Assembly: GCA_048213135.1 (NCBI GenBank) | Contig: PS015145.1 | Coordinates: forward strand, 31,791-88,456 | Origin: Reclinomonas americana ATCC 50394 | Lineage: Eukaryota | DNA length: 56,666 bases | Reading direction: 5' to 3' | In this document: positions 16,410 to 45,560 of the stretch, piece by piece | Numbering within the stretch: position 1 is the first letter of the stretch | Layout: the number at the start of each line of letters is the position of its first letter | Program-made: the position numbers and the translations under genes | The notes under the pieces: model-generated | What the model was told of the DNA's origin: nothing | The model's database searches: none | Seen by the model: only the letters and a program-made list of their open reading frames with translations

Positions 16410-16746
16410 TGTGCGTGTGTGTGTGTGTGTGTATCTGTGTCACCTTACTCTTTCACACACACACAGCGTTGCAAATCTCATCCTGTTCTCCTCTCCTCCT
16501 CCTCCTCCTCCCCTTCAGCCTTCCTTCCCTCTCCGTGCTCTCTCTCTCTCTCTCTCTCTCTCTCTCNNNNNNNNNNNNNNNNNNNNNNNNNNNNNNNNNN
16601 NNNNNNNNNNNNNNNNNNNNNNNNNNNNNNNNNNNNNNNNNNNNNNNNNNNNNNNNNNNNNNNNNNNNNNNNNNNNNNNNNNNNNNNNNNNNNNNNNNNN
16701 NNNNNNNNNNNNNNNNNNNNNNNNNNNNNNNAGCAATCACTTTCAT
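13372..16746 (-). CDS. DPH6: Diphthine--ammonia ligase with C-terminal RidA/YjgF-like domains
   Basis: Start MKVIA at 16746 runs into an N gap. Motifs: MYQTV, GDETEDL, GAILSDYQRLRVENV, CARLGLVSLAYLWRRDQ, HVCGEGGEYETLTLDSPLF, LHVQSISAWAPACIGPYSQ, LPRGARVE. The 3' end is approximate. Confidence 0.9.
16340..16566. repeat. (GT)n and (CT)n microsatellites in a DPH6 intron
   Basis: Directly visible; they abut an assembly gap. Confidence 0.95.
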
Positions 16747-23134: not shown

Positions 23135-24734
23135 TCACTTATCTTCTGGTCGCACAACGACGGCCGGAGTCTGCTGCCGCGCTGGCGGGTGCGCGCGTGT
23201 CGACGGTGGCGAGATGATGTCCCACATGTTGGCCCATATGGAACCGCGGTCGTAGAAATTGCGAACTTCCACCTCGTTCCACACTCGTTCCAGTTCCTCT
23301 TCGGTGACGGTCTCGTCGTTGAGGTTGATTGCGGCCGCTGATTGTGAGCCGGCTCCACGTTGCTTGATGTGGCCGCTGGAAGAGGCGGGATTGGAAGGGG
23401 TGCAACCGGGCGGCTCCTTGGCACCGCGCTTCGGCTTGTCCTTTTTCTGTTGCTTGGCAGTCGACGTCTTCTTGTCGTCGACAATGCCACCGGCGAGACG
23501 CAGCTGCCTCCGGCGACGGTAGTAGTCGGCGGTGGAGTGGATGTCTTGCCACTTGAATGACTCGGCGGTGGTCATGTTGCGCGACATGAGGTACTTGGGC
23601 GAAAGGAGAAGTGAGCCGAGACAATGGTTGCATGCACGTCGCCACCACAACGAAGACGCACCAGGTGGTACACAGTGAACCACAACAGGAACCCAACAAA
23701 CACCGCGGAGAGGATGAAGAGGAACACCAGCGCCGAGTAGTAGCTCATCAGATACTGAGCGGGAAAGCATGAGCGAGAAGCGTGCGCAGGGGTGAGCACG
23801 AGCTGCACACCTGCAGAATGGTCCAGTGCGTGGGCCAGTACATCTCCTCGGTCTCATACACCACAAACTGGCGGTTGTACAGATCCTGCGAGGTGACAAT
23901 GTGCATCGCGGTGGCCAGCGCCGTGTACATGCCATACGACACCATGGCGAGGTTGACAAAGAGGAACGCCATAAAGTGGCGATAGTTGAGCTCGCCAATG
24001 TCGGTGTTGAGCCACACACAGTGGTGATCCATGCGCTGCGACACGCGTGTGAGCGGTGAAGAGACACACAACAAACAAAGGAAGAGTTGTCTGCCACACG
24101 CAACTGCAACACACTGATTGCACACGGAGCAGTGCTTGGAGCGCGCGGGTCGCTCAAACTTGCACGTGCCACACGTCTTCTCCACGTACAACAGCTGATC
24201 GAGCTCATATGCTGCCGCGTACTTGGCCACATTCCGCTTGGTGATCACTCCCGGGTCGGCAAACGAGGCCCACACAAACATGGCCAGTGACGCGCCAACA
24301 ACAACCGTACCACCATACCTTCACGAGAGAGAGACACACACACAGGATGAGCGTCTTGCTTGTCTGTGTGTGTGTGTGTGTGCGTGTGTGGCGACTCACT
24401 GATGCGCCTCTGAGAGGTACTCGTGTGGCAACTCGGCGGCGACCGTGTCCTCGAAAAAGTAGAGGCCCGTGAGCAGCAGCAGCACGTAGAGGATCTGCAC
24501 GAGTGGGTTGGGCGTGCGAGTCACGTAGTGCTGCAGGCGGTGCCAGAGAGTGCGCGGTGGGGCATTGTCGCCTGTGACTTGTGATCGTCGTGTGCAGTCG
24601 AGCTTTTGCAGGAGGGCTTCGCGGGTGCGGCCGACCCATGTGTTCTGCAGAGCGGGTGTGTTGCCGCAGCCGCAGACGAGCAGGAGGAAGCCGCCGGTGG
24701 CGGTGTAGAGGGTGAGGATGATGGCGGGCCACAT
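23135..24734 (-). CDS. DHHC protein S-acyltransferase (SWF1/ZDHHC4-like)
   Basis: ADPGVIT, CGTCKFERPARSKHCSVCNQCVA|RMDHHCVWLNTDIGELNYRHF, NMTTAESFKW and NFYDRGSIWAN, plus several TM helices. Confidence 0.92.
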
Positions 24735-24811: not shown

Positions 24812-27800
24812 ATGGCACTGCTGACAGACGAGGAGTTGCGTATGAGCTCACACCTCCTACTTCTCCACACTCCTCCTCTCACATGCCTTGTGCCCCAGAT
24901 CGAACTGCGTGCGCGCCATGAAAGCAGTACGTGGCGTGGCTGCTCGTGCGCTGCGTGCATTGGTGGAACAAGAGCTGCCTGTGTTTGTGCGGCGATGCGC
25001 GGAGGAGACGGAGGCGTCGGGAGCGGGGAAGGTGGAGTTGATGAGGGAGTGGATGAAGAAGCAGGTCAACAAACGAGATGCACGGTGTGTGTCTTGTCCA
25101 ACTTCCACTCCTCTCCTTTGCCTCCATGCTGATGCCGGGTGTCACACAGCACTGCGCCAGCGGGATCTGACCGCGAGCGAGTGTTGTGCTATGACTCATC
25201 GCGTGCTGCCATGGACGAGTGGCAGCGAGCGTTGGATGCTGGCGAGCCTGCTCCCTCGTGCCAGGCGTTTGACATTACGTGGCTCACGTCGGTGTTGCTG
25301 AACGCACGCTGGGCGCTGAGGGTGGACGCCGCTGCGCACGAGGTGCGACATCTGATCTCCGACGCAACGCAGGTGTGCGGATAAATGCATGCTTTTCCCT
25401 GCTCCTCGTCTGCCTTCTCTCTCACCTCTCAGTGCAGCGCGAGGCGATCGGCGGCCTGCGTGAGTTGCGCAACGAGCTCATGCATGGTGCAGACATGAGG
25501 CTCTCCGCAGAAGGGTTGCGCCAGCTGCTGGGAGACGAGAGCAAAGATGGACAAGTCGCTGTGCTGTTGCGACAAGCCGGCGTTCCGCAGCTGGACACCT
25601 TCTTGCGAGATATTGATGCCGTTCGCCGCGGTGCGTGTGAGCAAGAGCGTGCATGCATGTGTGTGAAGAGAATGATGCTCATCAGTATGGGTTTTTGTTT
25701 GCCTCACGTGCAGCCGCGGCGCCTGTCGGCAACCCAATCACCTTCTGCAACGTGGGTCAGCTGGACGGATTCCCGTTTCCCAGTCGTGTTGTCGAGGCCG
25801 AGCGACTCGCCGAGCGACTGCTGGAGTGTGATGCTGGTGAGTAGATGTGGTTTTCGTTTTCTCATTCTCTCTCTCTCTCTCTCTCTCTCGCACTCATCCA
25901 CTCTCTCTCTCTCCCTCACAGGTGACACGCCCGGAATCCTTGTGCTCTCTGGTGAAGGAGGAAGCGGGAAGACCACACTAGCGGAGCTGGTGGTGTCGGA
26001 GATGGAGCGCAGGAAGTGGCGTGGCTCTGCACTGTACTCGGATATGCGCGGTCACACAGCTGATGCTCATCGCTTCACGTCGGTGAGTGAGCAGAGAGTG
26101 GATTTTCTTGAGTGCAATGATGTGTTGATCGTGGTGATGCAGACAATGGAGGTGCTCGGGAATGGACTGCGGGGATTCGCGCACGCCATGATGCCAGTGC
26201 AGTCCGATGCATAGCTGCTGGCCCAGATTGATGCGTGGGAGCGGAGCGAAGATGTGGACGCGCTGCGCAGCCGTTTGAGTGACTTGATGCATGACAGTCA
26301 CTGCGTGCTGTTGCTTGACAATGTCGGCAGCGGAGATCAAGTGCTGGCAGTTATGCGGGCGGAAGGCGCGCGCAGTCGAGTTCGTTCAGGTGTGTGCATG
26401 TATGGGCGAGCTGAGTAGATCTAGATCACCCTGTGGCTCACTATCGCGCGCATCTGCTGTGTACAGGCGTCTGCCGGATGACGGCGCCAATGACAATTGT
26501 AACAACTCGATTCAGTCGGGTAGCTGAGCAGCTGAAGCAATCGCCGTTGTTGAGCTCGGTGACGGTGTTGCATGTGGCCGTGGGTGATGTGGAACTGGAG
26601 GATGTGGCCAAGTATGTACGTCAGCAAATCGATGCACCTGAGGAGATCTGTAACGAGGTCACACAGGCGACGGTAGCGAAGCCGCAGGCATTTCGTGTTG
26701 CCATGTGTCTAAGGTACGCTCTCGCGCATAGCGCTTCTCTCACCGCTTAACGAGTGACTGGGGGATGACACACGCAGTATGCTTGCACGAGAGTCGCTGG
26801 AAACACTTGCCGGTGATGAGTTGCATGGACGACTTGCGGCGACTCGAGCGCTCGCACTGGAGGAGCTAATGAGCAAGAATTTGGCGGAGTGTTCGCCGCT
26901 GATGCGACGTGTGCTGGTGCTGGTGGCGGCTTTGCAGCAGATGCGCGTGCATGCGACGAGTCGCACGGTGTCACTGCTGACCCTGGCGATGAGCGCTGGC
27001 GGAAGCAATGGGGAGTACGGTAGTCAGGATGAGAAAGTAAGGGAAGCACTAGAATGGCTTCGTCGGTCAATGCTGTTGCAGGCCAGGGTGTCACATTCGT
27101 GTGATGCATTGTGCCAAATGATGTCTGGTGATGACTTTGTGGTCTCGCCCTCGAGGGTGGAGTACGGAGTTCACGATCTATTGATGGAATGGATCGTTAC
27201 GCGAAATCGAGAGAGTGAGCTGCTCGAGTGGAGAGATATTGTGGCTGACGCGATTCTGAGTGGCGTGAGCCGTTGCGAAGCTGGAGTTATCAGCGACGCG
27301 ACACTTGCCGACATTCGTCCATGTTTACAAGTGCTGTGGAGTGATCTGTTGCCGATGATGACGCGACGATGGGTATGGAACGCAGTGCCAGTTGACATAC
27401 TGGAGGCGTGGCTCACCGGTGTTCTTGTCCTTGCTCAACTTGTGGAGAGACGACTTCCAGTCGGCGAGTTTGGCGCCAATGTGGCGGTGGAATGTGCCGG
27501 ATGGCTGCGTGAGCAATCTCTCAGTGGAATGGATCGGAGTTTGTTGCACCTGAGAACACGGTGTGTGGCAGCGCTGTTGATTAGTGCGCGTCGCGACAGT
27601 GACGCCGCCGAGTATTTGGAGGGGTATCTGTCGACCGTGGTGTCCACGGACGATGAAAATACGATAGCAGTAATCCGACATCTGTACGCAGACTGTCTGC
27701 GAAGCACAGGCAAACTAACTGAAGGCGAGCGGCTGTACCGGCAGGTACTTGCACAGAAACGTGAGTTTCTGGGCGACAGGCATCGAGACACGTTGGCTGT

Positions 27801-29658
27801 CATGAACGATCTTGCCAAATGCACGCAGGCGACCGGCAATCTCGACGAAGCCGAACGACTGTACTGGGAGGTATTGGAGTTGAGACGAGAGGTGCTTGGT
27901 GCCAGACATTTAGACTCGTTAGCTGTCATGAACAATCTTGCCGACTGCATCCAGGGGGGCGGCAATCTTGCTGAAGCCGGGCGACTGTACTGGGATGTTT
28001 TGGAGTTGAGACGAGAGGTGCTTGGCGCCAGACATCCAGACACGTTGACTGTTATGAACAATCTCGCCGACTGCGTTCAGAAGAGCGGCAGTCTCGCCGA
28101 AGCCGAGCGACTGTACCGTGAGGCGTTGGCGCTGAGACGTGATGTGCTTGGTGACAAGCATCCGCTCACACTTATGTCCGTGAACAATCTCGCCATGTGC
28201 ATTCATGAGAGTGGGAACCTCTCTGAAGCCGAGCGACTGTTTCGAGAGGTTCTGATGGTTAGGCGAGAGGTGCTTGGTGACAGACATCCAGACACGCTGG
28301 CGTCCATGAACAATCTTGCCAACTGCATACAGGAGAGAGGCAGTTCGGTTGAAGCCGAACGCCTCTTTCAAGAGGTGTTGGTGCTGCGACGGGAGGTGCT
28401 TACTGACAAGCACCCCGACACTTTGTCTTCCATGGCCAATATCGCCATGTGCGTCCAGTCCAGCGGCAACTTCGACGGAGCCGAGCCATTGCATCAGGAT
28501 GTGTTGGCGTTGAGACGTCAAGTGCTTGGTGACAGGCATCCAGACACGCTTATGTCTATTAACAATCTCGCCGACTGCGTCCAGAAGAGGGGCATTCTCG
28601 CCGAAGCCGAGCGATTGCATCGGGAGGTGCTGGCGTTGAGGCGCGAGGTGCTTGGCGAAAGGCATCCGAGCACGCTGGCATCTATGAGTGGGCTTGCCAA
28701 CTGCATCCAGACGAGTGGCAATCTCTTCGAAGCCGAGCGATTGCATCGGGAGGTGTTGGCGTTGAGACGCGAGGTGCTCGGCAAAAGGCATCCAGACACG
28801 CTGGCATCTATAAGTGGGCTTGCCAAGTGCATCATGGACAACGGCAATCTCGCCGAAGCCGAGCGACTGTATCAGGAGGTGTTGGTGTTGCAACGGGAGG
28901 TGCATGGTGACAGGCACTCAGACACGCTGGCGTCCATGAACTACCTCGCCGTGTGCATGCAGTCCAGTGGCAATCTCGTCGAAGCCGAACGACTGCATCA
29001 CGAGGCGTTGGTGTTGCAGCGTGAGGTGCTTGGTGACAGACATCCTCTCACGCTTTCGTCCATGAACAATCTCGCCATCTGCATCAAGGACAGCGGCAAT
29101 CTCTCCGAAGCCGAGCAACTGTGCCGTGAGGTGTTGGCGTTAAGACGTGAGGTTCTGGGCGCAAGGCATCCAGACACGCTGGCATCCATGAGCACTCTCG
29201 CCATGTGCATCAATGAGAGCGGCAATCTCGCTGAAGCTGAACGACTGTGTCGTGAGGTGTTGGTGTTGCAGCGTGAGGTGCTTGGTGACAGGCATTCAGA
29301 CACGCTGGCGTCCATGAACAATCTCGCATTGTGCATCCAGGCGAGCGGCAGCGCTAGCCTCGCAGAAGCCGAGCGACTCTTTCAGGAGGTTTTGGCGTTG
29401 AGAAGTGAGGTTCTGGGCGCAAGGCATCCAGACTCGCTGACGTCCATGAGCAACCTTGCCATGTGCATCAAGGCAAGCGGTAATCTCGCCGAAGCCGAGC
29501 GACTGCTTCGGGAGGTGTTGGCGTTGCGGCGTGCAGTGCTTGGTGACGCGCACCCAGACACACAGGTGTCGGTCAATAATCTTCGCACAATTGAGCAACA
29601 GCGTCAAGTCTCACAAGGGTGCTCTCTTACACGAACACGCACTTGCGTTTTCCTGTAA
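24812..29658 (+). pseudogene. NLR-like gene copy 1: DZIP3-type HEPN + NB-ARC-type NTPase + ~15 TPR + CaaX, with in-frame TAG at 26212
   Basis: MALLTDEE|SNCVRAMKAVRGVAARALRALVE, FDITWLTSVLLN, LRELRNELMHG (25468-25485), Walker A GEGGSGKT (25951-25974), Walker B VLLLDNV, IVTTR, VHDLL (27169), 126-bp repeats, and C-terminal CVFL*. TAG at 26212-26214 aligns with CAG in copy 2, so coding status is uncertain. Confidence 0.75.
27712..29590 (+). repeat. Coding tandem array of ~15 x 126 bp (42-aa kinesin-light-chain-type TPR)
   Basis: Consensus [42 protein letters not shown]; no introns in the array. Confidence 0.95.
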
Positions 29659-30297
29659 GTTTGGCTCCACACGGCTCACGGAGTGATTCTGAAGGCTTGT
29701 CATGAACATATGACTTTTTGATGATTGTGATTCGTTTTTTTCGTTTACTTCCCAAGTCCGCATTCAAGGCTGACGGTGAGAAAATCGAAAGTCAGCAGCA
29801 GTAGCTCGACATAGTCACCGACGATGACAACGCATACGACCAACTGCAACTCAATGTGAACTGCATGCGCCCATTCAACATTTGCGCCGCAGCGAGCGCT
29901 ACAGTAGTAGCATGCCGCGCAGCGCTGCTGATATGTGCTTGACCGACTGCACGCCATGCTCTCTATTGTTCAACCTCATAATCAGTGACGCCTCCACTGC
30001 TCTGCTTGTTTCACGAGCACGCTCCTGGCTCCCTGGCGTCGGCCTTCTCCGACGACGTCGACTGTTGTACGTTTCGTCGCTTGCGCTGTCGAGGCTCATT
30101 TCGAGGAGACTTACGACTGCATAGAGGCACTTTAACGAATTCTGCACAGCTGGCGTGCTATCAACAAGCAGACAAGCAGACCAGGAGCGTCCTGTCCGCA
30201 CCTGCCTGGCTTGTTTTTCCGGCAAATCTGGCGCATGCGCAGCGCTGCGCGCGTGTCGTCAGACGGACAGCTGCTGTCAGCTTGATAGAATTCACTC

Positions 30298-33200
30298 ATG
30301 GCGTTGCTGACTGACGAGGAGTTGTGTAGTCATCCTCTTTCTCCGCACACCACCTCCTCTCACTTCCCTTGTGCCCCAGATCGAACTGCGTGCGCGCCAT
30401 TAAAGCCGTGCGTGGCGTGGCTGCTCATGCGCTGCGTGCGCTGGTGGAACAAGAGCTGCCTGTGTTTGTGCGGCTATGTGCGGAGCAAACAGAGGCGTCG
30501 GGAGCGGGGAAGGTGGAGTTGATGAGAGAGTGGATGAAGAAGCAGGTCACCAAACGAGATGCGCGGTGTGTGTCTTGTCCAAATTCCGCTCTTCTCCTTG
30601 GCCTCCATGCTGATGCCGAGTGTCGCGCAGCACTGCGCCTGTGGGATCAGACCGCGAGCGAGTATTGTGCTATGACTCGTCGTGTGTTGCCATGGACGAG
30701 TGGCAGCGTGCGTTGGATGCCGGCGAGCCTGCTCCCTCGTGCCAAGCGTTTGATATTACGTGGCTCACGTCGGTGTTGCTGAACGCACGCTGGGCGCTGA
30801 GGGTGGACGCCGCTGCGCACGAGGTGCGGCATCTGATCTCCGACACAGCGCAGGTGTGCTGATAAATGTATGCCTTCCTCCCTCTCTCGTTCTCATCTCT
30901 CGGTGCAGCGCGAGGCGATCGGCGGACTGCGTGAGTTGCGCAACGAGCTGATGCATGGTGCAGATATGCGGCTGTCCGCAGAAGGACTGCGCCAGCTGTT
31001 GGGAGACGAGAGCAAAGACGGACAGGTCGCTGTGTTGTTGCAACAAGCTGGCGTTCCGCAGCTGGACACCTTCTTGCGAGAGATTGATGCTGTTCGTCGT
31101 GGTGCGTGTGAGTAGGAGCGTGCATGCATGTGTGTGAAGAGAGTGACGCTCATCAGTATGGGTTGTTGTTTCTGACACGCAGCCGCGGCGCCTGTCGGCA
31201 AGCCAATCACGTTCAGCAACGTGGGTCAGCTGGACGGATTCCCGTTTCCCAGTCGTGTTGCCGAGGCCGAGCGACTCGCCGAGCGCCTGCTGGAGTGTGA
31301 TGCTGGTGAGTGGATGTGGGTTCTCATTTCTTTATTCTCCCTCGCACTCATCCACTCTCTCTCTCTCTCCCTCGCAGGTGACACACCCGGAATCATTGTG
31401 CTCTCTGGCGAAGGAGGTAGTGGCAAGACCACACTGGCGGAGCTGGTGATCTCGGAGATGGAACGCAGGAAGTGGCGTGGCTCTGCGCTGTACTCGGATA
31501 TGCGCGGTCACACTGCCGATGCTCGTCAATTCACGTCGGTGAGTGAGGAGAGAGTGCGAGTGCGGCCACAGGGTTGTTGATCATGGCGATGCAGACAATG
31601 GAGGTGCTCGGGAACGGACTGCGGGGATTCGCGCACGCCATGATGCCGGTGCAATCGAACGCTCAGCTGCTGGCCCAGATTGATGCGTGGCAGAGGAGCG
31701 AAGATGTGGATGCGCTGCGCAGCCGTTTGAGTGACTTGATGCACGACAGTCACGGTGCGCTGTTGCTTGACAATGTCGGCAGCGGAGATCAAGTGCTGGC
31801 AGTTCTGCGGGCGGCAGGCGCGGGCAGTCGAGTACGTTCAGGTGTGTGCGTGTATGGGTGAGCTGAGTAGATCACCCTCTGGCTCACTTTCCCGTCTGCT
31901 GAGTACAGGCATGACAGCACCAATGACAATCGTGACCAGTCGATTCAGTCGAGTAGCCGAGCAGCTGAAGCAATCGCCGCTGCTGAGCTCGGTGACGGTG
32001 GTGCATGTGTCGATGGGTGACGTGGACAGGGAGGACGTGGCCGATGCCGAGCGACTGTATCGGGAGGCGTTGGAATCGAAGCGTGCGGTACTTGGTGACA
32101 GACACCCAGATGCGCTGGCGTCCATGAGCAATCTCGCCAGCTGCCTCAAGGCAAGCGGCAATCTCACCGAAGCTGAGCGACTGTTCGGAGAGGTGCTGGC
32201 GCTGAGGCGTGAGGTGCTAGGCGAGAAGCACGCAGACACGCTGGCATCAGTGAGCAATCTCGCGAACTGTATGCTGGCGAGCGGCGTTGTTACCGAAGCT
32301 GAGCAACTGCATCGGCAGGTGCTCGCATTGAGGCGCGAGGTACTTGGTGACAGACATCCGTCTACGCTGGCATCCATGAGCGATCTCGCCGTCTGCATGC
32401 AGGCGAGCGGCGATCTCTCGGAAGGCGAGCGACTGTATCGAGAGGTGCTGGCACTGAGGCGTGCGGTTCTGGGAGACAGGCATTCGGACACGCTGTCTTC
32501 CATGAACAATCTCGCCAGTTGTTTGTTGGCAAGCGGCAACCCGACTGAAGCCGAACAGTTGTATCGCGAAGCTTTGACGTTGAGGCGTGACAAGCTCGGC
32601 GACAAGCATCCGGACACGGTGACTTCTATGAGCAGTCTCGCCAGCTGCATGCAAGCGAGCGGCAAATTTGCTGAAGCCAAGCAACTTTATCAAGAGGTTG
32701 TGGTGCTGAGGCGCGAGGTTCTCGGTGCCAGAGATCCCGACACGCTGACATCGATGAGCAATGTTGCTACTTGCGTCCACGCCAGTGGCAATGTTGTCGA
32801 CGCCGAGCGACTGTACCGGGAGGTGCTGGAACTGAGGAGGGAGGTGCTTGGTGTCAGGCATCCACGCACAGTGTCGTCCACGTACGATCTCGCCACCTGC
32901 ATCGAGGCCAGCGGCAACCTCACTGAAGCAGAGCGACTGTATCGAGAGGTGTTGGCATGGAGGATAGAGGTGCTGGGTGCCAGGCGACCAGACACGTTGA
33001 CTGTCATGAGTGATCTTGCCCGGTGCACGCAGATGAGCGGCAATCTCGTCGAAGCTGAACGCCTTTTCCACGAGGTGTTGGTGCTGCGACGGGAGGTGTT
33101 TGGTGACCAGCACCCCGACACGCTGACGTCCATGGCCAATGTCGCCAAGTGCATGCAGGCCAGCGGCAATCTCTCCGAAGCCGAGCAACTGCATCGAGAA

Positions 33201-34457
33201 GTGCTGGCGCTGAGGAGAGAAGTGCTTGGCGAGAGACACCCAGACACGCTGGCGTCCATGAACGATCTCGCCAACTGCACGCAGGCAAGCGGTATCGTCA
33301 CCGATGCAGAGCGTCTGTATCGGGAGGTGCTGGCGCTGAGACGCGAAGTGCTCGGCGACAGGCACCCCGAGTCTCTGTTGTCCATGAGCGACCTCGCCAG
33401 CTGCATGCAGGCGAGTGGCGACCTCGCCGAGGCGGAGCGACTGCACCGAGAGGTGTTGGCGTTGAGGCGTGAGGTGCTTGGCGACCGGCATCCGAGCACG
33501 TTGACGTCCATGGCCAGTGTCGCCAAGTGCATGCAGGCCAGCGGCAATCTCGCCGAGGCCGAGCGATTGTTTCGAGAGGTGTTGGCACCGAGACGCGAGG
33601 TTCTCGGCGACAGGCACCCCGACACGCTGGCATCGCTGAACAGTCTCGCCAGCTGCCTGCAGGAGAGCGGCAAGCTCGTCGAAACCGAGCAATTGCTTCG
33701 GGAGGTGTTGACGTTACGACGGAGCTCGCTTGGCGACAGAAACCCGGACACGCTTACGTCTGTAAGTAGTCTCGCCACGTGCGTGCAGGCAAGCGGCAAT
33801 CTCACCGAAGCCGAGCGACTGCACCGGGAGGTGTTGGTGCTGCGACGGGAGGTTCTTGGTGCCAGGCATCCGCACACGCTTCTGTCGATGGCCAGTCTCG
33901 CCAGGTGCTTACAGGTCGGCGGCAATCTTGCCGAAGCCGAGCGACTGTATTGGGAGGTGTTGGCATTGCAGCGTCAAGTGTTTGGTGACAGGCACCCACT
34001 CACGGTGACGTCCTTGAGCAACCTCGCCATGTGTGTTCAGGCCAACGGCAACGTCTTCGAAGCCGAGCGGCTGTACTGGGACGCGTTGACGTTGCAGCGG
34101 CAGTTGCTTGGCGACAGGCACGCTGACACGCTGTCGACCATGAACAATATCGCCAACTGCATGCAAGCGAGCGGCAATCTGGAGGAGGCCGAGCGACTGT
34201 ATCGGGAGGTGTTGGCATTGCGGCGGGAAGTGCTTGGTGACCGACACCCAGCGACGCTGAACAGCCTCGCCAGTTGTCTGCAAGAGAGCGGCAATCTCGC
34301 CGAAGCCGAACGACTGTATCGCGAGGTGCTGGCGCTGCAACGTGAGATGCACGGCGACACGCACCCGGACACACAGCAGGCGCTGCACAACTTGCGTGCA
34401 GTTGAGCGACAGCAGCGCAGCGCACAGCGATGCTTGCGCAAGTGCGTTCTCCTCTGA
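30298..34457 (+). CDS. NLR-like gene copy 2: HEPN + NB core (helical/winged-helix part absent) + ~19 TPR + CaaX
   Basis: Same exon/intron layout as copy 1. RNELMH at 30939-30956, GEGGSGKT at 31407-31430, ALLLDNV and IVTSR. The frame then runs directly from EDVA into DAERLYRE (32042/32043) and ends RCLRKCVLL* (TGA 34455-34457). Confidence 0.85.
32043..34395 (+). repeat. Coding tandem array of ~19 x 126 bp (42-aa TPR)
   Basis: Same consensus as copy 1; unit 18 is 3 aa short (HPATLNSLA). Confidence 0.95.
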
Positions 34458-34842: not shown

Positions 34843-34925
34843 AGAGCGCGCGAAGAAGGAGTAGCCTTAAGTGCCGCCTAATCTCTTGTTGCATTCACCC
34901 GCTCTCTCTCTCACTAACTCACTTC

Positions 34926-35014
<89 letters not shown>

Positions 35015-38000
35015 TCACTCACTCACTCACTCACTCACTCACTCACTCACTCACTCACTCACTCACTCACTCACTCACTCACTCACTCACTCACTCACTC
35101 ACTCACTCACTCACTCACTCACTCACTCACTCACTCACACTTCCACACACTTTCACACACTTTCACACACTTTCACACTCCCTTCCCTCACTCTCCCCTC
35201 ACAGATGCCTCTCCGCGCGGTGAGTCTCGCCGGCGACCTCTCTCACCTTCGCGCGATCACCTCCACTCGTGGTGTGCGTGTGTGTGACGTTGAGGGCGAC
35301 TCGTCTGCACAACCTCCATCCTCCAAGGCCGTGGATTCGTTTGCGACACAGGAGGTGGTGGAGGCGGAGGTCGCGTCGGATGTGGTGCATGTGATTGATT
35401 TGCGACGTCCGCTCACCGACGATGATATGGCGGCGCTCGACGATGGGCAGGCGATCTCGTTGGTGTTTGCGAGGAAGGTGAAGGTGAGTGCGTTGTGGGG
35501 AAGGGAGTGTGGGAAGGGGGGCTCTCGTTTCTTGCAGGTTTGTAGTGTTTCTCCTTGATTCTTTGTCACTCTTCTTCTTTCCTCACTCTCTCTTGCTGTT
35601 CGTTTGTATCGCTCCAGCACCGATGTGTCGTCTTCATTCTCTGCTGTTCTTGTTTCCACTCGTTTCTCGCCTTGCACTCTCCATCTATTCTTTCCTCCCT
35701 CCTTTGTTTCGCTTCTCTCCCTCTCTTGGTGTTCGTTTGTATCGCTCCAGCACCGATGTATCGTCTTTATTCTCTGCTGCTTATTTCCTCTCGTTTCTCG
35801 CCTTACACTCTCCATCTGTTCTTTCCTTCGTTTTGCCTTCCCTCTCTTGGGGTTCGTTGGTATCGTTCCGATGCCTGCGCTTCGCTCTTCTTCTCGTCTC
35901 TGCATGTTTCCTCTCGTTTCTTGCTTGTCGCTGCGTTCGTTTGCATCACTCCAGCATCTACGTATCTTCTGTGCTTGGTTCCCCTTCTTTCTTTCGCTGC
36001 CTCCTGACGCTTGCGTGGTTGTCTCCTTTCTCTCTCTCTCCCTGTCTGTGTGTGTGTGTTGGCATTCGTTTGTATCGCTCCAGCACCGATGAATCATCGT
36101 GTTACTATTCTCTGCATGTTCTCTCGTTTCTTTCGCTGCCTCCTGACGCTTTCGTGCTTGTCTTCTCTCTTTTCTTTCTTTCTTGTCGCCAGCACCGATA
36201 TATTGTCTTGCTCCTCTTCCGTGGTGGCTTCTCTCGGTTTGCGCTGCATCTTTTGTGTACTATCCTTTCCCTTCTTCTTTCGCTTCTCTCTTTTTTCTCA
36301 CTTGCTGTTCCTGTGTGACATCGATCTTCTTTTTCGCTTCTCTCTCTCACTTTCTCTCTCGTTTCCTCGTGCTTCCTCGCTCTTGGTGTTCGTTGCATCG
36401 TTTCCTTTTGCTCCCTCGCTTCTCCCCCTCTCCCCCTTCTCCCCCCTCTCCCCCCTTCTCCTCTTCTCCCCTTCTTCCCCCTTCTCCATCTCCTGCTCAT
36501 GGATAACACACACAGGACGGACACGAGGCCGAGTTCACACGCTGGGTGCATGACGGCATCCGGCGAGTCATGCGCAAAGTGCCCGGCTACCTCGGCCTTG
36601 ATCTCATCCGGTGTGTTATTGCCCTCTGCCACTCATATTCCTCTTTTTCCCCTCACCCTCTTGCGCTCGATCCACAGGCCGTCGCAAGACTACGCGGAAT
36701 TCGTATCGGTGTCTCGTTGGGCCGATGTGCACGCCGTTGCGTGTTGCACTGCACCCATTGTCTGCTTCCAATCCATCGGCCACTCATCCCTTCACGATTC
36801 CGCAGCTGAAGCAATTTTTGAACTCGCCCGAACGCATCGCGTGGGTAGACGAGGCCGAGGGCCTGATCGAGGGCTCCACCGACATTCACATCATGGGCAC
36901 CGAGGGCTACTTTACGCTGCCAGAGGACTCCTCCGGCAACAAGCTGGAGATCATCCAGACCACTCCCACTCCCGCTGGTCCACCGGTACGCTCTTTACAC
37001 TTTTCCATTCTCCGCGTCGACGTGTGTGTTGATGTGTGCGTGCCGCAGCCGCCACCGCCGTGGAAGACGTCGGTCACCTTCTTTTTCGGCATGTACCCGA
37101 TCCAAGTCGGGCTCGGCTATCTGTTGCGCCCAAAGACCGCCCTGTGGCCGTTGCCGGGTAGTTCACTGCTGCAGCTCTCCATTGCGGTGACGGCACTGGT
37201 GCTTTTCGTCGCCGCCCACCTCACCTGGTTCTTCTGGTGCTTCCTGTACCCGGGGTACCCGCGGCCGCCGTTTGCAAAAATCTCCATCTTTTGTCTCTTT
37301 GGCAAGGCACCGTGGTGTCGACCTCGCAGCGACGCACCGATAGACGGCGCGACGGCAACCGAAGTAGTTTCCGACCGTCCCCCAGCCTCACCATCTGTGG
37401 CACCCACTGCCGCCGCCGCCGCCAATCTACCGCCGCCAGTACCTAGCGATGAAGGGGGCGACTTGGCGACCGACCGCGACGGGGAGGCGCTCGAGAACGA
37501 CACGACACAGCAGAAGATTCCGCGTCGCGCCATCTTTCATCCAGCCGCCGGCCACCCCGGCTCCGAAACGGAGGTGTGTGTGATGTTCTGCTCTCCTCCG
37601 CGCGACGCGCGTGTCGCGGCCTCACCGCTCATCGCCACTGTGCAGGTGGAGATACCCGAGGTGCATCTGGGGCAGCGGCATGCAAGTTTGCCGATGGCAA
37701 AACTGCCGGGAGACAGCAGTGCCAGTGCCGACCTGCAGCACTTTGATCGCATCCTCAACGAGAAGGATCCGCTGACGGTGACCGTGTCACGTACGGTGAT
37801 TCCCGGCAAGGAGGACGAGTATCTGGATTGGCTCCGCCGGGGCATTCGCACCATCTTCCGCCACAATCCCTCCTACCGCGGCATGACCTTGATCCGGTAT
37901 GTTTCTTTACCTCTCTGCGGTGTGCGTGCTCTCCTCCTCATCTCTATGCGTGTCGCAGACCATCTCCACAACGCACCGAATTCATCATCATCTCTCACTG

Positions 38001-38783: not shown

Positions 38784-41700
38784 TTACCGACCGAGATCCG
38801 ACAAGTCAATTCTGAACTGCTTGGTGGCGGCACCCGCGCTCTTCTGACGGCGGTTCTTAAACACGGAGCCATCTTGCAGTTCGCGTACCATCGAGTCCAT
38901 AATGCCCTTCTCTGGTGCTGCTGGTGCCGCCGCCGATGCCGCCGCAGTGGACGAGCTGCCAGCTGCTGGCGACACGGGCGAGGCGGCCACACGCGAGGCC
39001 ACGCCACCACCGCCGCCAATGGCCACTGCGCAGCAAGTGACACAAGCAAAAAATGAGACCAAGATATGTGCATGGATCACCAAGACGAGTAACGAACCGA
39101 CAGACGCCGCTGCCGCCGCTGACTGAGCCATGGACTGGCGCTGTGCGGCCTCGCGCCTGGCAGCCTGCTCCTCTGCCTTCTTCCGACGCTCCTCCACCTT
39201 GCGCAGCTCGGTGCTGGAGACTTCAAAGTCCCTGAGGAAAGACTCCATGTTCTTGAAGAAGCTCTCCGGATCAAACTTCTTTGGCTCCTCGCCAAAGAAC
39301 ACGGCCAACTTCTCCAGGTCGTCCTGCAACGTCGTAAAGTCGCTGCTGACAGACTCCCACTCGCGATGATGCTCGTCGAGGAACGCCTGGTGGGGGGAGG
39401 GGAGGGGAGAACAGTAAGATAGCCGACGACAGTGACTTGTGAGTGCGCGAGACGAACCTGCATGACTCCCTGGAACCTGTCGCCAGCGCCGGCGGCCTGC
39501 TGAATCTGGTCCTGGATCAACTTCATCGACTTGCTGACGGCGGCAATGTCATCGCGCAGCGCGGGCATGTTCACTGCGGTGCAAGGGTGAGACCGGAGAG
39601 AAGGAGGTGGTAAAGGGAAGGGAAGGGAGGTGAAGAGAGACGATGGAGAAGGATGACAGGCACGAGCGACAAAGAAGAGGGCTGAAACGAAGAGAGTGAT
39701 GCGGAAGGGAAGACGGAGGGAAGGAGGGCGAGAGGGAAGAGTGGAGAGAAACAGGGAGGAAAAGAGAAAGGCAACAGTGACAGTAACAAGTAGGAAGAGA
39801 GGAGAGAAGGTAGTAAGGAGAGAAACAGGGAGGAACACAGTGACAGTAGCGAGAAAGAAGAAAGGAGAAAGGAGGTGAGGATAGCAGCAGCAAGTTGTTC
39901 GGGAGAAGGAAGAGAGACAGATGAAAGCAGAAGATAGCGAGAGACATGGAGAGGACGCAAAGATGGATGCGTCGCACTGCGAGTTTGAGAAGTTGCGCGA
40001 AAGAGAGAGAGAGAGATAGAAAGGCATCTGCGCTTATCCCTCGATCTGTACCTCGGCTGGCGTCGGGGATGTGCGCCAGATCGGCACGCAGATCCATCAG
40101 ATCGGGATACTTGGTCTGGCACAGACGCACAATGTACATCAGCAGCGTCATGCCCTCGGCTCCGCGCGTCTCCTTCAGCTTGCCGAGCGACTCGAGTCGG
40201 AAACCGTACGCATTGCCACGGAATCCGCCGCCGTTCATGTAGTTGCCAATAGCCAACACGATCTCCAGCAGACGCGTCAGCTTGGTGCTCTTGCGCAACT
40301 CTTGCGCGGCAAAGGTGACATTGCTCAATTGCTGTGTGCACGAGCACGGATGAGAACCGAGAACAGAAGTACACGAATTAAGAACACACACGTACCGGCA
40401 CAATGTCGTCCACCAGTGCGCGGTACTTGTATGAGAACAGCCAGCACTTCATGCGCGCCTCGAGACGCGGCACCGTACCGATCTGATGGCAAGGCACACA
40501 CATCAGCACTCAACATGCACCTCATTTTCGTCCTCTCGCACACACAAACAAACGAGACGCAACGACGCGAACAAACTGCTCCGCACGACCGAGCTCGCCC
40601 TGACCATCCCAGCTGCCGACCAACTCGACCTGTCACCGCCACATCACGATGAGTGAGCATGAGCAGATGTACGGCAGAAGCGGTGCGACACACAAACCTC
40701 TTCGGCTGTTGGCGCAATGTTGATCAGCGCTTGCACGTGACGCTCTGTCAGCACATCGCGGTTCATCTGGATGATGGCCTGCCGGAGATCCTCCAGCGGA
40801 ATCTTGGCAAACGTGGAACCGAGCACAATGCCTGCACGACAAATCGACACAGTGCGTAAGCACAAGCACACTCACGCCACTAAACAGGGACGTCGCTCTC
40901 AACTCATGTTCTGGTTGCGCTTGCCCTCCAGCAGCGACACAATCGCCGGGCGACTCGACGACGCCGACGAAGCGGCTGCCGAGGCGGCTGGTGCCGATTC
41001 CACAGCTGAGAACATGGACTCGAGCGAGTCTGTGTCGAGGTCGACCGACGACAGGTTCTCCACAATCTTGCTCTCCGTCCAAATCGAGCCTGCGACCTTG
41101 ATCGGCTGCACCTTGTCCCACTGCACGCCCTTCAGTTTGGTCTTCGGAGCGTACTTGGGGAGTGGTGGTAGTGGCGGACCGGCTGTTAAAGAAAGCAGAG
41201 GAATGAGAAAGAACGTATGATGCAGTTTCGAGACAATTCTCGACCACATGTCCCACCTGGCATGAAGCCCGGCGCAGGCGGCGCACCCGGAGCTGGCGGA
41301 GCACCGGGTGGTGGTGGTGGAGCTCCAGGCGGCGGCGGCGGTCCACCAGGCGGCNNNNNNNNNNNNNNNNNNNNNNNNNNNNNNNNNNNNNNNNNNNNNN
41401 NNNNNNNNNNNNNNNNNNNNNNNNNNNNNNNNNNNNNNNNNNNNNNNNNNNNNNNNNNNNNNNNNNNNNNNNNNNNNNNNNNNNNNNNNNNNNNNNNNNN
41501 NNNNNNNNNNNNNNNNNNNNNNNNNNNNNNNNNNNNNNNNNNNNNNNNNNNNNNNNNNNNNNNNNNNNNNNNNNNNNNNNNNNNNNNNNNNNNNNNNNNN
41601 NNNNNNNNNNNNNNNNNNNNNNNNNNNNNNNNNNNNNNNNNNNNNNNNNNNNNNNNNNNNNNNNNNNNNNNNNNNNNNNNNNNNNNNNNNNNNNNNNNNN

Positions 41701-44700: not shown

Positions 44701-45560
44701 TGCGGGCGAGTGAGTCAATGCTGAGGAAGGGAGGCAAACTGATAGAGGAAAACACACACCTCCGGCATCCAGGAACTGGTTGACCCAGGAGAGCGGACGA
44801 CTGCGAAGCTCCTGATGCAGAGGGAAGTGAGGCATGAACATGGNNNNNNNNNNNNNNNNNNNNNNNNNNNNNNNNNNNNNNNNNNNNNNNNNNNNNNNNN
44901 NNNNNNNNNNNNNNNNNNNNNNNNNNNNNNNNNNNAGGACCAGGCGGTGTCAGACAATAGGAGAAGGGTAGCGAAGGGAAGGAGATGAATTCTTCACAAC
45001 AATGCTTCTGTGAGCATGTGAGCGGCAGGAACAGACAGTGGCGGACGAGTGTCAGATGAGCGTCAGCTCACTGTATGCGAGGAGATCGGAGCAGAGAAGC
45101 AATGGAGGAAGAGAAGTTCTTCACAGCATGCGTTCTATGAGCATGTGAGTGGCAGGAACAGACAGGGAGAGACAGGGATGGAGTGGCGGACGATTGTCAG
45201 ATGAGTGTCAGCTCTCTGTGCGTGTGTGTGAGAGAGAAAGAGAGAGAGAGGGAGAGAGAGAGCATAGGAGGAGGAGGAGGAGGAGGAGTTCATCACAGCA
45301 CTGCCTTCTATGAGCATGTGAGTGTCGGGTGCAGACAAGAGACGGAGTGGCGGACGAGTGTCAGACGGGCCCTCGTTTCCATCCACCCTCTACATATCAC
45401 TCCTCTCTGTGCACAAGTGCGTATGTGTGTGGGAGGACGAGAGAGAGGAAGAGAGGAAAGCAAAAATCGGAAAAAGGCAGTTGATGCATGATGAGATCCT
45501 TCCTGTCAGAGTCTCTCTTCCCCTTTGCTCCCTCCTCTCTCACTTTCTCTCTCTCTCTCT

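Follow-up and report, generated by a model that had tools for sequence, protein, structure and literature searches.

Two tandem genes on the forward strand of the window, the whole 56,666-nucleotide stretch of DNA analyzed here, appear to encode duplicated STAND receptors with a HEPN-type head, an NB-ARC-like switch, a TPR sensor of 14–19 units, and a C-terminal CaaX box, a reading to which we assign a probability of roughly 0.55. Copy 1 and copy 2 are located at positions 24812–29658 and 30298–34457, respectively. At the level of sequence, we regard the predicted gene structure, the duplication of the locus, the purifying selection on the pair, the predicted TPR array, and the predicted STAND-like NTPase with its motifs as established. 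The NLR/Avs-like layout proposed in a first-pass annotation was recovered in all its components, namely a tandem pair, an effector-like N-terminal domain, a STAND-type P-loop NTPase, and an array of 42-aa TPR units.

Structure, selection, and lesions of the tandem pair

Copy 1 consists of nine exons on the + strand (24812–24837, 24899–25084, 25150–25372, 25438–25630, 25714–25836, 25922–26082, 26143–26389, 26467–26713, and 26778–29658), and its conceptual product of 1428 codons is open apart from one internal TAG. Seven of its eight introns, which are 60–85 nt long, have GT donors, intron 1 has a GC donor, and the acceptors are AG throughout. Copy 2 consists of eight exons on the same strand (30298–30323, 30380–30565, 30631–30853, 30909–31101, 31183–31305, 31378–31538, 31595–31841, and 31909–34457), every intron of which is GT–AG. 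Its spliced translation contains no internal stop, an exon of 848 codons stays open, and the intact open reading frame gives a product of 1235 aa. The introns of the two genes range from 55 to 85 nt, and the presence of such short spliceosomal introns indicates that the host is a eukaryote. All motif strings quoted in the first-pass annotation were found at their proposed places in both copies when the exons were joined; its exon 1/2 junction, given as ...TDEE|SNC..., was in error and should read ...TDEEL|SNC..., with a GC–AG intron at this position in copy 1 and a GT–AG intron in copy 2.

In blastn, the copies aligned from their ATG codons (24812 and 30298) to 26609 and 32042, respectively, with 88% identity. 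Gaps occurred in none of the seven shared exons (89–96% identity) and in six of the seven introns (71–89% identity). Over 425 codons, dS was 0.24, dN was 0.03, and omega was 0.13, with 71.5 synonymous and 33.5 non-synonymous differences (Fisher p = 1.9e-22); the paralog pair has been under purifying selection. Since both the exon/intron indel contrast and the dN/dS ratio back it, the splice model is more than the outcome of motif hunting.

As assembled, both copies fall short of a complete, canonical receptor. Both genes had previously been taken for intact receptors, which this assembly does not bear out: copy 1 carries a premature in-frame TAG at 26212–26214 (codon 331, exon 7) in the stretch from Walker A to Walker B, the matching codon of copy 2 being CAG (31664–31666), and copy 2 is missing the putative GLPL-to-MHD part of the switch, which corresponds to its helical and winged-helix domains. 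A reassigned genetic code is unlikely, because TAG is found once in the two coding sequences against 103 CAG and CAA codons. Since the window comes from a draft scaffold containing seven runs of N, the base at 26212 may be in error, or the site may be heterozygous. The segment found only in copy 1 (26610 to about 27720, some 1.1 kb), delimited by the end of the blastn alignment and by translation, runs from the last part of exon 8 through intron 8 into exon 9, of which it takes in the initial ~310 codons, and would hold the GLPL- and MHD-position parts of the switch and a helical linker; its AF2 single-sequence model had a pLDDT of 51 and was unusable. Past 32042, copy 2 passes straight into TPR units. 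The missing part is in frame, and the deletion junction shows a short microhomology to the start of a TPR unit. Because of the TAG in copy 1 and the loss from copy 2 of the switch part that ordinarily binds ADP and mediates oligomerization, a receptor mechanism may fail from either gene as assembled.

Domain composition of the predicted products

The N-terminal domain, a putative HEPN-like effector of about 210 aa, is encoded by exons 1–4 on the + strand (24812–25630 in copy 1 and 30298–31101 in copy 2), and the candidate HEPN domain is spread over exons 2–4 in three different frames. Predicted to be all-helical, this domain most probably represents a divergent RNase head of the HEPN type, with a predicted HEPN fold and predicted RNase activity; the kinds closest to it are DZIP3 and DUF4559, which precede NACHT domains in marine invertebrates. 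The candidate catalytic motif RNELMH (R-N-x3-H) was translated from 25468–25485 in copy 1 and 30939–30956 in copy 2, and in both it agrees with the Rx4–6H pattern of the HEPN superfamily, with Asn after Arg. FDITWL is encoded at 25268–25285 and 30749–30766, respectively. The Rx4H motif put forward in the first-pass annotation was present; a bare Rx4H, however, lies within chance expectation: when the 212-aa domain was shuffled 20,000 times, it arose in 31% of the cases and Rx4–6H in 67%, whereas RNx3H was rarer, at 0.6%. A second motif of the Rx5H form (RVDAAAH, residue 128) is also contained in the domain. Because the domain is 94% identical overall between the copies (omega 0.094), conservation of the motif between them is uninformative.

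Pfam profiles were scanned exon by exon, which splits the score of a multi-exon domain. The only family touching the N-terminal domain was DUF4559 (PF15112), with sub-threshold matches (E = 0.03 and 0.0096; 14.2 and 15.9 bits; cut-off, 27 bits) at the RNELMH helix of exon 4, the one with E = 0.0096 spanning 54 residues; exons 2 and 3 otherwise gave chance-level matches. HEPN_DZIP3 (PF18738; 144 positions; cut-off, 27 bits) gave no match at E ≤ 10 on exons 2–4 of either copy in the per-exon scan with HMMER filters, so that this profile did not bear out the suggested kinship with DZIP3-type domains on single exons; the apparent likeness in the patterns FDIT..L and LR..RN.L.H remains a lead. The ESM-Atlas neighbours of exon 4 included DUF4559, HEPN_DZIP3, and HEPN_Swt1 with scores of 0.79–0.82 (lead level, 0.9); the two best neighbours were unnamed viral clusters, and the concordance was 1 of 10. 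The proposed HEPN identity is weakly supported, by one RNx3H motif together with a DUF4559 profile match (14–16 bits against 27) and language-model neighbours (below 0.9), both under their thresholds. The ESM-Atlas search with exon 3 returned nothing, PADLOC and NCBIfam returned no match on the exons of the domain, and phmmer returned no match for exons 3 and 4 in the PDB and only a chance TPR match for exon 4 among 1.84 billion representatives. Word-based sequence searches found no relatives.

The core of the proteins is a STAND-like P-loop NTPase with an NB-ARC-like order of motifs. The pre-Walker-A helix and the nucleotide-binding domain were assigned to exons 5–8 of copy 1 (25714–26713, + strand) on the basis of sub-threshold Pfam matches and hhalign. 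Walker A (GEGGSGKT) is encoded at 25951–25974 in copy 1 and 31407–31430 in copy 2, Walker B (LLLDNV) at 26308–26325 and 31760–31777, and sensor-1 (IVTTR and IVTSR) at 26496–26510 and 31929–31943, in agreement with the NB-ARC-type succession GxGGxGKT, hhhhD[DN], and T[TS]R. The 53-aa Walker A exon gave sub-threshold Pfam matches to nSTAND3 (E = 6.6e-5; 23.1 bits against a cut-off of 27.2), NPHP3_N (2.4e-4), NB-ARC (PF00931; 3.7e-4; 20.3 bits against 23.5), and NACHT (1.3e-3; 19.1 bits against 26.7), and it likewise matched AAA_16 within E values of 7e-5 to 1e-3. In this separate scanning of exons, the NB-ARC match was confined to the Walker A exon, and Pfam gave no STAND match on exons 7 and 8 or the linker, nor any match covering the region of the GLPL and MHD positions. 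With hhalign, comparison with an alignment of six bacterial NB-ARC-type TPR proteins yielded 87.8% (E = 3.3e-6), whereas the nSTAND1 group yielded 1.8% and shuffled or reversed control queries yielded 0.1–0.2%. The relaxed alignment was collinear, with Walker A, Walker B, and sensor-1 aligned at high posteriors; with low to moderate posteriors, AKPQAFRVA of copy 1 was placed at the GLPL position and GVHDLL (VHD, 27169–27177) at the MHD position.

The TPR array, which was delimited by TRF and, in copy 2, also by a listing of the units, consists of near-regular units of 126 nt (42 aa), with 14.3 units at 27759–29561 in copy 1 and 18.6 such units at 32041–34372 in copy 2, both on the + strand. 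The copy 1 array exceeded the Pfam cut-offs for TPR_12 (E = 4.7e-149, 485 bits, 15 stretches) and TPR_10 (E = 2.9e-141, 456 bits, 14 stretches). Variation among the units was greatest at positions 32, 34, 36, and 41. Both translations end in a CaaX-type box (Cys at −4, two mostly aliphatic residues, and X), CVFL-stop at 29644–29658 in copy 1 and CVLL-stop at 34443–34457 in copy 2. The box is kept across a region with a 12-nt indel, and the DNA homology between the copies decays right after the stop. CaaX boxes in which X is Leu direct geranylgeranylation, and prenylation at this predicted site would tether the protein to the membrane.

Proposed mechanism and alternative readings

If the proteins work like Apaf-1, plant NLRs, and bacterial Avs, an ADP-bound switch and the TPR arm would keep the protein monomeric in the resting state; this state would be lifted when a ligand binds the TPR solenoid at its variable face. 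Nucleotide exchange would then lead to oligomerization and bring the N-terminal domains together. In HEPN RNases, two domains make up one active site, and because of this requirement the proximity of the N-terminal domains would turn on RNA cleavage, resulting in cell-autonomous shutdown or non-self restriction. Both the ligand-driven oligomerization and the immune role of these proteins are proposed from this analogy.

The mechanism depends on the head being a HEPN domain, and it is possible, though on balance doubtful, that these STAND–TPR receptors instead carry a helical adaptor specific to their lineage, or an effector that targets membranes or proteins, and that RNELMH arose by chance. 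Such a head would be consistent with the sub-threshold scores of all HEPN families and the missing HEPN_DZIP3 match, with the frequency of Rx4–6H in shuffles (67%), with ESM-Atlas leads below 0.9 whose two best neighbours are unnamed, with the lack of a homologue in sequence searches, and with the 94% identity that makes motif conservation uninformative; it also has precedent in the many unassigned N-terminal domains of fungal and other NLR-like proteins. Against it, two methods, an HMM and a language model, both name NACHT-partner HEPN families on the RNx3H helix, and RN-x3-H, in which Asn follows Arg, is the motif form reported most often for DZIP3-type HEPN domains (PMC9646362) and appeared in only 0.6% of shuffles. 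We consider it less probable still that the genes are remnants in decay, both copies being pseudogenes or becoming so through the nonsense mutation in one and the internal deletion in the other, with no receptor function left. The TAG at 26212 and the loss of ~1.1 kb including the GLPL and MHD positions from copy 2 point in this direction. However, omega remained at 0.13 over 425 codons through 71.5 synonymous changes since the duplication, and constraint on the codons past the TAG was not significantly weaker than on the preceding ones (0.245 vs 0.129, p = 0.16). In addition, the 848-codon exon of copy 2 is open and its deletion in frame, both copies keep their CaaX box and the position of the stop, and the TAG may reflect a base error or a heterozygous allele in a draft scaffold with seven N runs.

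In another, improbable reading, the proteins would be regulators or scaffolds of the STAND–TPR type that serve in housekeeping or signalling, comparable to AfsR, MalT, or NPHP3/kinesin-light-chain-like proteins, rather than immune receptors. The Walker A exon matched AfsR weakly (PDB, E = 0.77; NCBIfam, E = 0.002), and weak NPHP3_N and TPR_NPHP3 matches were also obtained; the neighbouring genes are ordinary (Helicase_C, DHHC, LRR, and GH94) and form no NLR cluster, and a search of the window for a third copy found none. By contrast, Pfam detected no DNA-binding or other regulatory domain, and the tandem duplication, the change in repeat number (14 vs 19 units), the variation focused on a few TPR positions, the lack of a conserved orthologue in very large databases, and the lesions in both copies together argue for fast-evolving conflict genes rather than housekeeping scaffolds. 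Returning to duplicated STAND receptors with a HEPN-type head, a bolder version of this preferred reading seems a long shot: in a non-animal eukaryote, the genes would encode an RNase-NLR that is anchored in the membrane and restricted to its lineage (HEPN, NB-ARC-type NTPase, TPR, and geranylgeranyl tail), built independently of animal HEPN–NACHT proteins and with no relative recognizable among 1.8 billion representatives, the copies of which work as a pair. Equally speculatively, copy 2, which has lost part of the switch and has the longer TPR array, might then serve as a sensor, decoy, or regulator partnering copy 1, as in paired plant NLRs.

Comparison with known systems

HEPN–NACHT/STAND–TPR architectures have been described in the literature since 2013. 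With the architecture published for more than 10 years, the HEPN assignment unproven, and both copies damaged in this assembly, the present result has value as an annotation but is no surprise. Should the head prove to be a genuine HEPN RNase, the genes would add a unicellular or otherwise non-metazoan-looking case to the RNase-armed STAND receptors, with a different NTPase subtype and an added lipid anchor. They would then bear on whether RNase-headed effector–STAND–repeat receptors spread by inheritance, transfer from bacteria, or repeated assembly, and would provide a small domain, of ~210 aa, in which to study how proximity activates HEPN RNases.

The genes are NLR-like in architecture only. 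Animal NLRs of the NACHT–LRR type were considered and rejected, since NACHT was sub-threshold and ranked below NB-ARC and neither gene contains an LRR. Fungal NOD-like receptors join NB-ARC to 42-aa TPR units, and the genes share with them the NB-ARC-like core, regular 42-aa units, variable repeat number, and rapid turnover. We know of no HEPN heads among fungal NLR N-terminal domains. RNase L and Ire1 are KEN-domain HEPN RNases whose activity needs ligand-driven dimerization or oligomerization of a regulatory module; they resemble the predicted products in an RNx3–4H-type motif on a helix and in this ligand-driven step, which is only proposed for the genes here. Their module is built from a kinase or pseudokinase plus sensors of the ankyrin or lumenal type, whereas a STAND NTPase and TPRs are predicted here, and phmmer against the PDB detected no sequence similarity to the RNase L/Ire1 KEN domain. 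Table 1 of PMC3710099 includes the KEN family among HEPN domains, and PMC4986451 deals with fungal NB-ARC–TPR NOD-like receptors.

In the bacterial HEPN–STAND–TPR proteins, exemplified by Npun_F6454 (PMC3710099, Table 1), and in Avs, which are anti-phage STANDs with TPR-like sensors, the order effector–STAND–TPR is the same as here. In Avs, the TPR sensor captures the ligand, relieves autoinhibition, and drives a tetramerization that scaffolds nuclease effectors (PMC13581612). The TPR units of the present genes showed 34–55% identity to bacterial TPR_10/12 arrays, and similarity was confined to this part, as residues 1–780 gave nothing at E ≤ 1 against 78 bacterial loci. Unlike the bacterial genes, the gene here has eight spliceosomal introns and a eukaryotic CaaX box.

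DUF4559 (PF15112) is presumably the CXorf38-type HEPN of PMC3710099. The CXorf38 HEPN carries an inserted Zn ribbon (PMC3710099), whereas the N-terminal domain here has four scattered Cys and no Zn-ribbon-like CxxC pairs. DUF4559 is found on 45 of 99 NACHT proteins of a clam (PMC8298618). As in these bivalve proteins, the domain sits before a STAND NTPase, with DUF4559 touching the RNELMH helix, although the scores are 14–16 bits against a cut-off of 27.

HEPN–NACHT/STAND(–TPR) proteins are described from cnidarians, bivalves, Capsaspora, and bacteria (PMC3710099, PMC8260672, PMC9646362), including DZIP3-type HEPN fused to NACHT and TPR (PMC3710099). The DZIP3/hRUL138-like HEPN–NACHT proteins show lineage-specific expansions, Capsaspora included (PMC3710099, Table 1; PMC8260672; PMC9646362). 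The genes here differ from these in lacking a HEPN_DZIP3 match on single exons and any detectable sequence relative, in an NTPase more NB-ARC- than NACHT-like, and in the CaaX box and 55–85-nt introns. They share with them a predicted helical N-terminal Rx4H domain with Asn after Arg before a STAND NTPase, C-terminal repeat sensors that may be TPRs, tandem genes of variable copy number, and an RNase effector proposed to be turned on by oligomerization.

Gene models, constraint and surroundings

The motifs quoted in the first-pass annotation for the two tandem genes occur in stop-to-stop ORFs on the + strand that are scattered over three frames. Joining these ORFs at AG acceptors and GT donors, with one GC donor, yielded a nine-exon model for copy 1 (24812–29658, +) with 1428 codons and a single internal TAG. 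The same procedure yielded an eight-exon model for copy 2 (30298–34457, +) encoding 1235 amino acids without an internal stop, and the introns of the two copies were 55–85 nt long; spliceosomal introns of this short kind identify the DNA as eukaryotic. After joining, every quoted motif was read again at defined positions in both paralogs, and the candidate HEPN domain, described in the annotation as split and not visible as a unit in the ORF track, was indeed spread over the three frames. The manual splicing of the annotation recovered the motifs but misplaced the exon 1/2 junction; canonical splicing joins ...TDEEL to SNC... by removal of a GC-AG intron from copy 1 and of a GT-AG intron from copy 2. 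An alternative exon 2/3 junction, 25064/25178 with a 113-nt intron, was open in both copies and was judged less likely than 25084/25150 because of the donor, acceptor, and pyrimidine tract; the choice alters only a loop.

Alignment of the two copies by blastn started exactly at the proposed ATGs (24812 and 30298) and ended at 26609 and 32042; the 1805 aligned columns contained 67 gaps and were 88.0% identical. Exons 1 to 7 contained no gap, with 23/26, 172/186, 209/223, 176/193, 118/123, 145/161, and 228/247 identical positions, respectively, whereas introns 1 to 7 showed 71–89% identity and contained gaps in six of seven cases (11, 0, 14, 2, 17, 14, and 10 gap columns, respectively). Of the differences counted by the Nei-Gojobori method over exons 1–7, 60 were synonymous and 27 were non-synonymous (dS 0.243, dN 0.032, omega 0.131), and omega was 0.094 over the N-terminal 209 codons. 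When the shared part of exon 8 was included, the counts were 71.5 synonymous versus 33.5 non-synonymous (Fisher p 1.9e-22). The gap-free exons, as opposed to the gapped introns, and the synonymous excess argue that the predicted frames are real coding frames and that purifying selection acted on both copies during most of the period after they duplicated. The predicted splice model, whose junctions are computational, rests on more than motif hunting.

The window is GC-rich (about 55–64% outside gaps), and its seven N runs (2634–2653, 3004–3671, 16567–16731, 18216–18355, 18744–19399, 41355–42245, and 44844–44935; 2,632 bases), none of which lies within 24812–34457, identify a draft scaffold. 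These gaps, and not AT-rich DNA, account for what look like low-GC islands in the composition profile. No third copy of the paralog was found within the window, and the window scan detected no Rfam family or tRNA. The neighbors of the pair are ordinary genes. Upstream are a Helicase_C gene (4961–5902, +), a TPR_12 ORF (11420–12535, +; E 2.4e-11), and an LRR_9 ORF (17087–18175, +; E 1.4e-10), the latter two being unrelated to the pair by tblastn. Long microsatellites of the (CA)n and (CTCA)n types lie at about 34900–35220, just downstream of copy 2, and read HTHT... or SLTH... in ORFs. ORFs at 49170–51631 (−) match the catalytic and supersandwich domains of GH94 and resemble cellobiose/chitobiose phosphorylases. 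GH94 is uncommon in eukaryotes, and this gene may have been acquired horizontally or may serve as a lineage clue.

TPR array, nucleotide-binding core and C-terminal tail

The 42-aa TPR array reported for both paralogs was clearly recovered. Exon 9 of copy 1 matched TPR_12 (E 4.7e-149, 15 stretches) and TPR_10 (E 2.9e-141, 14 stretches), and the period in TRF was 126 nt, repeated 14.3 times at 27759–29561 and 18.6 times at 32041–34372. Among 31 extracted units, the framework was strongly conserved and variability was concentrated at unit positions 32, 34, 36, and 41, a pattern that, we infer, is compatible with a ligand-binding surface on an otherwise constant solenoid.

A first scan of genome contigs with a 336-aa TPR piece gave 45 pattern matches, none of which was confirmed. 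A degenerate-pattern scan of prokaryotic genomes with a TPR block gave 228 relatives, and the 78 loci kept showed 34–55% identity to the window protein in the TPR part. Residues 1–780 of spliced copy 1 had no match at E<=1 in these 78 loci. In the 59 bacterial ORFs having sequence upstream of the array, this sequence carried a Ser/Thr-kinase signature (40/59), a P-loop (13/59), or neither (6/59). Pfam analysis of 10 of the 59 identified Pkinase in five, NB-ARC in two, nSTAND1 in one, AAA_16 with a cyclase domain in one, and nothing in one. Locus L039 combined EAD1 with NB-ARC, and locus L033 combined a nucleotide cyclase with AAA_16. The most similar arrays (46–55% identity) were those of loci L001, L004, and L002, the first two lying in tandem on one 21-kb MAG contig; these three ORFs had only 72–132 residues before the array and did not resemble the first 780 residues of the window protein.

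For the nucleotide-binding region (exons 5–8) and the linker that begins exon 9, exon-by-exon Pfam searches gave matches only on the 53-aa Walker A exon (exon 6), all below the cut-offs: nSTAND3 (6.6e-5), NB-ARC (3.7e-4), NACHT (1.3e-3), and also AAA_16, AAA_22, and NPHP3_N. Pfam returned nothing meaningful for exon 7, exon 8, or the 324-aa linker, each scanned separately. In PDB phmmer searches, exon 6 matched generic P-loops only, exon 7 gave chance matches only (E>0.4), and exon 8 gave no match at E<=10. A word-based search with linker residues 1–320 of exon 9 found no homologue, and AF2 prediction of exon 9 residues 1–324 without an alignment had a mean pLDDT of 51. At the domain level, residues 215–700 of spliced copy 1 were compared by hhalign with the aligned NOD regions of six bacterial TPR proteins, chosen as those with an NB-ARC-like P-loop. 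The probability was 87.8% (E 3.3e-6) against this NB-ARC-like group and 1.8% against an nSTAND1 group, and shuffled or reversed queries gave 0.1–0.2%. In the Pfam scan of the Walker A exon, NB-ARC scored 20.3 bits versus the 23.5-bit cut-off.

The confident core of the hhalign alignment spanned 43 columns, from the pre-Walker-A helix through Walker A. At a relaxed threshold, CVLLLDNV aligned with the bacterial Walker B and PMTIVTTR with the sensor-1 TSR, collinearly and with high posteriors; AKPQAFRVA fell at the GLPL position with low posteriors, and EYGVHDLLMEW at the MHD position with moderate posteriors. The Walker A, Walker B, and sensor-1 motifs described in the annotation are thus present in an order collinear with bacterial NB-ARC-like proteins. 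From these sequence comparisons, we conclude that the predicted core is a STAND NTPase with an NB-ARC-like motif order, the subfamily assignment being tentative.

Both C-termini carry a CaaX-type box, CVFL-stop at 29644–29658 in copy 1 and CVLL-stop at 34443–34457 in copy 2, preceded by Cys and basic residues. The homology of the copies reaches the stop codon across a 12-nt in-frame indel and decays immediately after it. Leu at the X position points to geranylgeranylation, and the STAND–TPR proteins may therefore be geranylgeranylated and anchored to a membrane. Among the titles listed for literature on CaaX or prenylation with NLR, NB-ARC, or STAND, none concerned a prenylated STAND receptor, and an immune analogue was present in the form of prenylated GBPs. 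A DHHC palmitoyltransferase gene (23751–24320, −) and copy 1 are transcribed divergently from starts about 490 bp apart; its position beside genes with Cys-rich lipidation-type tails is notable and probably a coincidence.

The N-terminal domain

The head of about 210 amino acids encoded by exons 1–4 contains RNELMH in both copies. Among shuffled versions of the 212-aa domain, only 0.6% contained RNx3H and 31% contained bare Rx4H. In Pfam scans of separate exons, the sole family touching this domain was DUF4559, which we take to be a CXorf38-type HEPN, with matches below the cut-off on the RNELMH helix (copy 1, E 0.03, 14.2 bits, residues 8–31 versus model 151–174; copy 2, E 0.0096, 15.9 bits, residues 8–61 versus model 151–200). 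PMC8298618 reports DUF4559 in 45 of 99 NACHT proteins of a clam. The named ESM-Atlas neighbor sets of exon 4 were DUF4559 (0.82), HEPN_DZIP3 (0.80), and HEPN_Swt1 (0.79), all below the tool threshold; its top two neighbors were unnamed viral clusters, and the concordance count was 1/10.

Other searches gave no such lead. The domain was tested for membership of the Pfam family HEPN_DZIP3 and was not assigned to it, the profile giving no match at E<=10 on any of its exons; this model also had no match in five bacterial and 14 control genomes. Exon 3 returned nothing in Pfam or ESM-Atlas (nothing useful at 0.78–0.80), and neither exon 3 nor exon 4 had a PDB phmmer match at E<=10. PADLOC and NCBIfam found nothing in the exons of the domain. 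Word-based searches against longer proteins found no homologue of exon 4 (E<=10) or of the exon 4–exon 7a read-through ORF, and metagenome scans gave 115 pattern matches for exon 4 and 599 for exon 3, none confirmed. The only phmmer match of exon 4 among 1.84 billion representatives, protein P0001 (five stretches), consists of TPR-type repeats throughout and was rejected because its match to LRQLLGDESKDG in the query was judged coincidental. Complex prediction of the exon 2, 3, and 4 peptides, run without controls, scored 0.00 against a mark of 0.34, a result that weighs neither for nor against the HEPN assignment. The proposed HEPN RNase head was favored by RNx3H and by the sub-threshold DUF4559 and ESM-Atlas leads, and disfavored by the lack of any profile match above threshold and by the frequency of bare Rx4H in shuffles; on balance, we lean modestly toward membership of this domain in the HEPN superfamily.

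Lesions, predicted activation and known systems

In copy 1, codon 331 lies between the Walker A and Walker B motifs and reads TAG (26212–26214); copy 2 has CAG. A reassigned code with TAG as Gln would read through this codon; however, one TAG stands against 103 CAG/CAA codons, so reassignment is unlikely. Constraint after the TAG was not significantly weaker than before it (pN/pS 0.245 versus 0.129, p 0.16), and the TAG is therefore a recent change, allelic, or an assembly error. If real, it would leave a copy 1 product of 330 amino acids with the head and Walker A only. The C-to-T change at 26212–26214 also makes a potential 'tag' acceptor ending at 26214; it is speculation that splicing from exon 6 to this acceptor would remove 24 codons, keep the frame, and avoid the TAG. 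Copy 2 has no counterpart of copy 1 from 26610 to about 27720, and '...GDVDREDVA' is followed directly by TPR units. The deletion junction shows short microhomology with the TPR unit start, and the deletion is in frame, leaving an 848-codon exon open. The absent segment holds the GLPL- and MHD-position elements assigned by relaxed hhalign; in STAND proteins, such elements hold ADP and mediate oligomerization. It is somewhat doubtful that the genes as assembled yield an operating receptor.

The domain order, motifs, constraint, and duplication are the observed part of the case. If the proteins act like Apaf-1, plant NLRs, and Avs, the TPR solenoid would capture a ligand, and capture would lead to nucleotide exchange and oligomerization. 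Oligomerization could then bring the N-terminal domains together for RNA cleavage, as in dimerization-dependent HEPN RNases. PMC13581612 describes the TPR sensor of Avs7, the release of autoinhibition, and tetramers that scaffold the effectors, and Anantharaman et al. propose the same activation logic for HEPN–NACHT proteins (PMC3710099).

An effector-like head–STAND–TPR architecture for the pair has a probability of about 0.9. The earlier interpretation as NLR-like receptors with a HEPN effector thus held for the architecture, while the HEPN identity stayed below thresholds and both genes carry lesions that it had not recognized. Table 1 of PMC3710099 lists DZIP3-type HEPN domains fused to TPR, NACHT, CARD, DEATH, and LRR, with Nematostella, oyster, and Capsaspora each showing lineage-specific expansions, and already includes bacterial HEPN–STAND–TPR proteins. 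Cnidarian species have 17–83 HEPN–NACHT proteins each in the examples given in PMC8260672. A pearl oyster has >50, with C-terminal TPRs on some NACHT proteins, according to PMC9646362, where the commonest motif form is Rx4H with Asn after Arg, as in the RNELMH of the window. Literature searches on HEPN with NB-ARC, TPR, or STAND, or with NLR, protist, or holozoa, supplementary files excluded, gave no paper on the exact combination in a protist. Such architectures have already been published in animals, Capsaspora, and bacteria, and the paralogs would be sequence-orphan members of the known HEPN–STAND–TPR architecture, with the NB-ARC-like core, the CaaX tail, and the switch-deleted partner copy as possible twists on the known systems.
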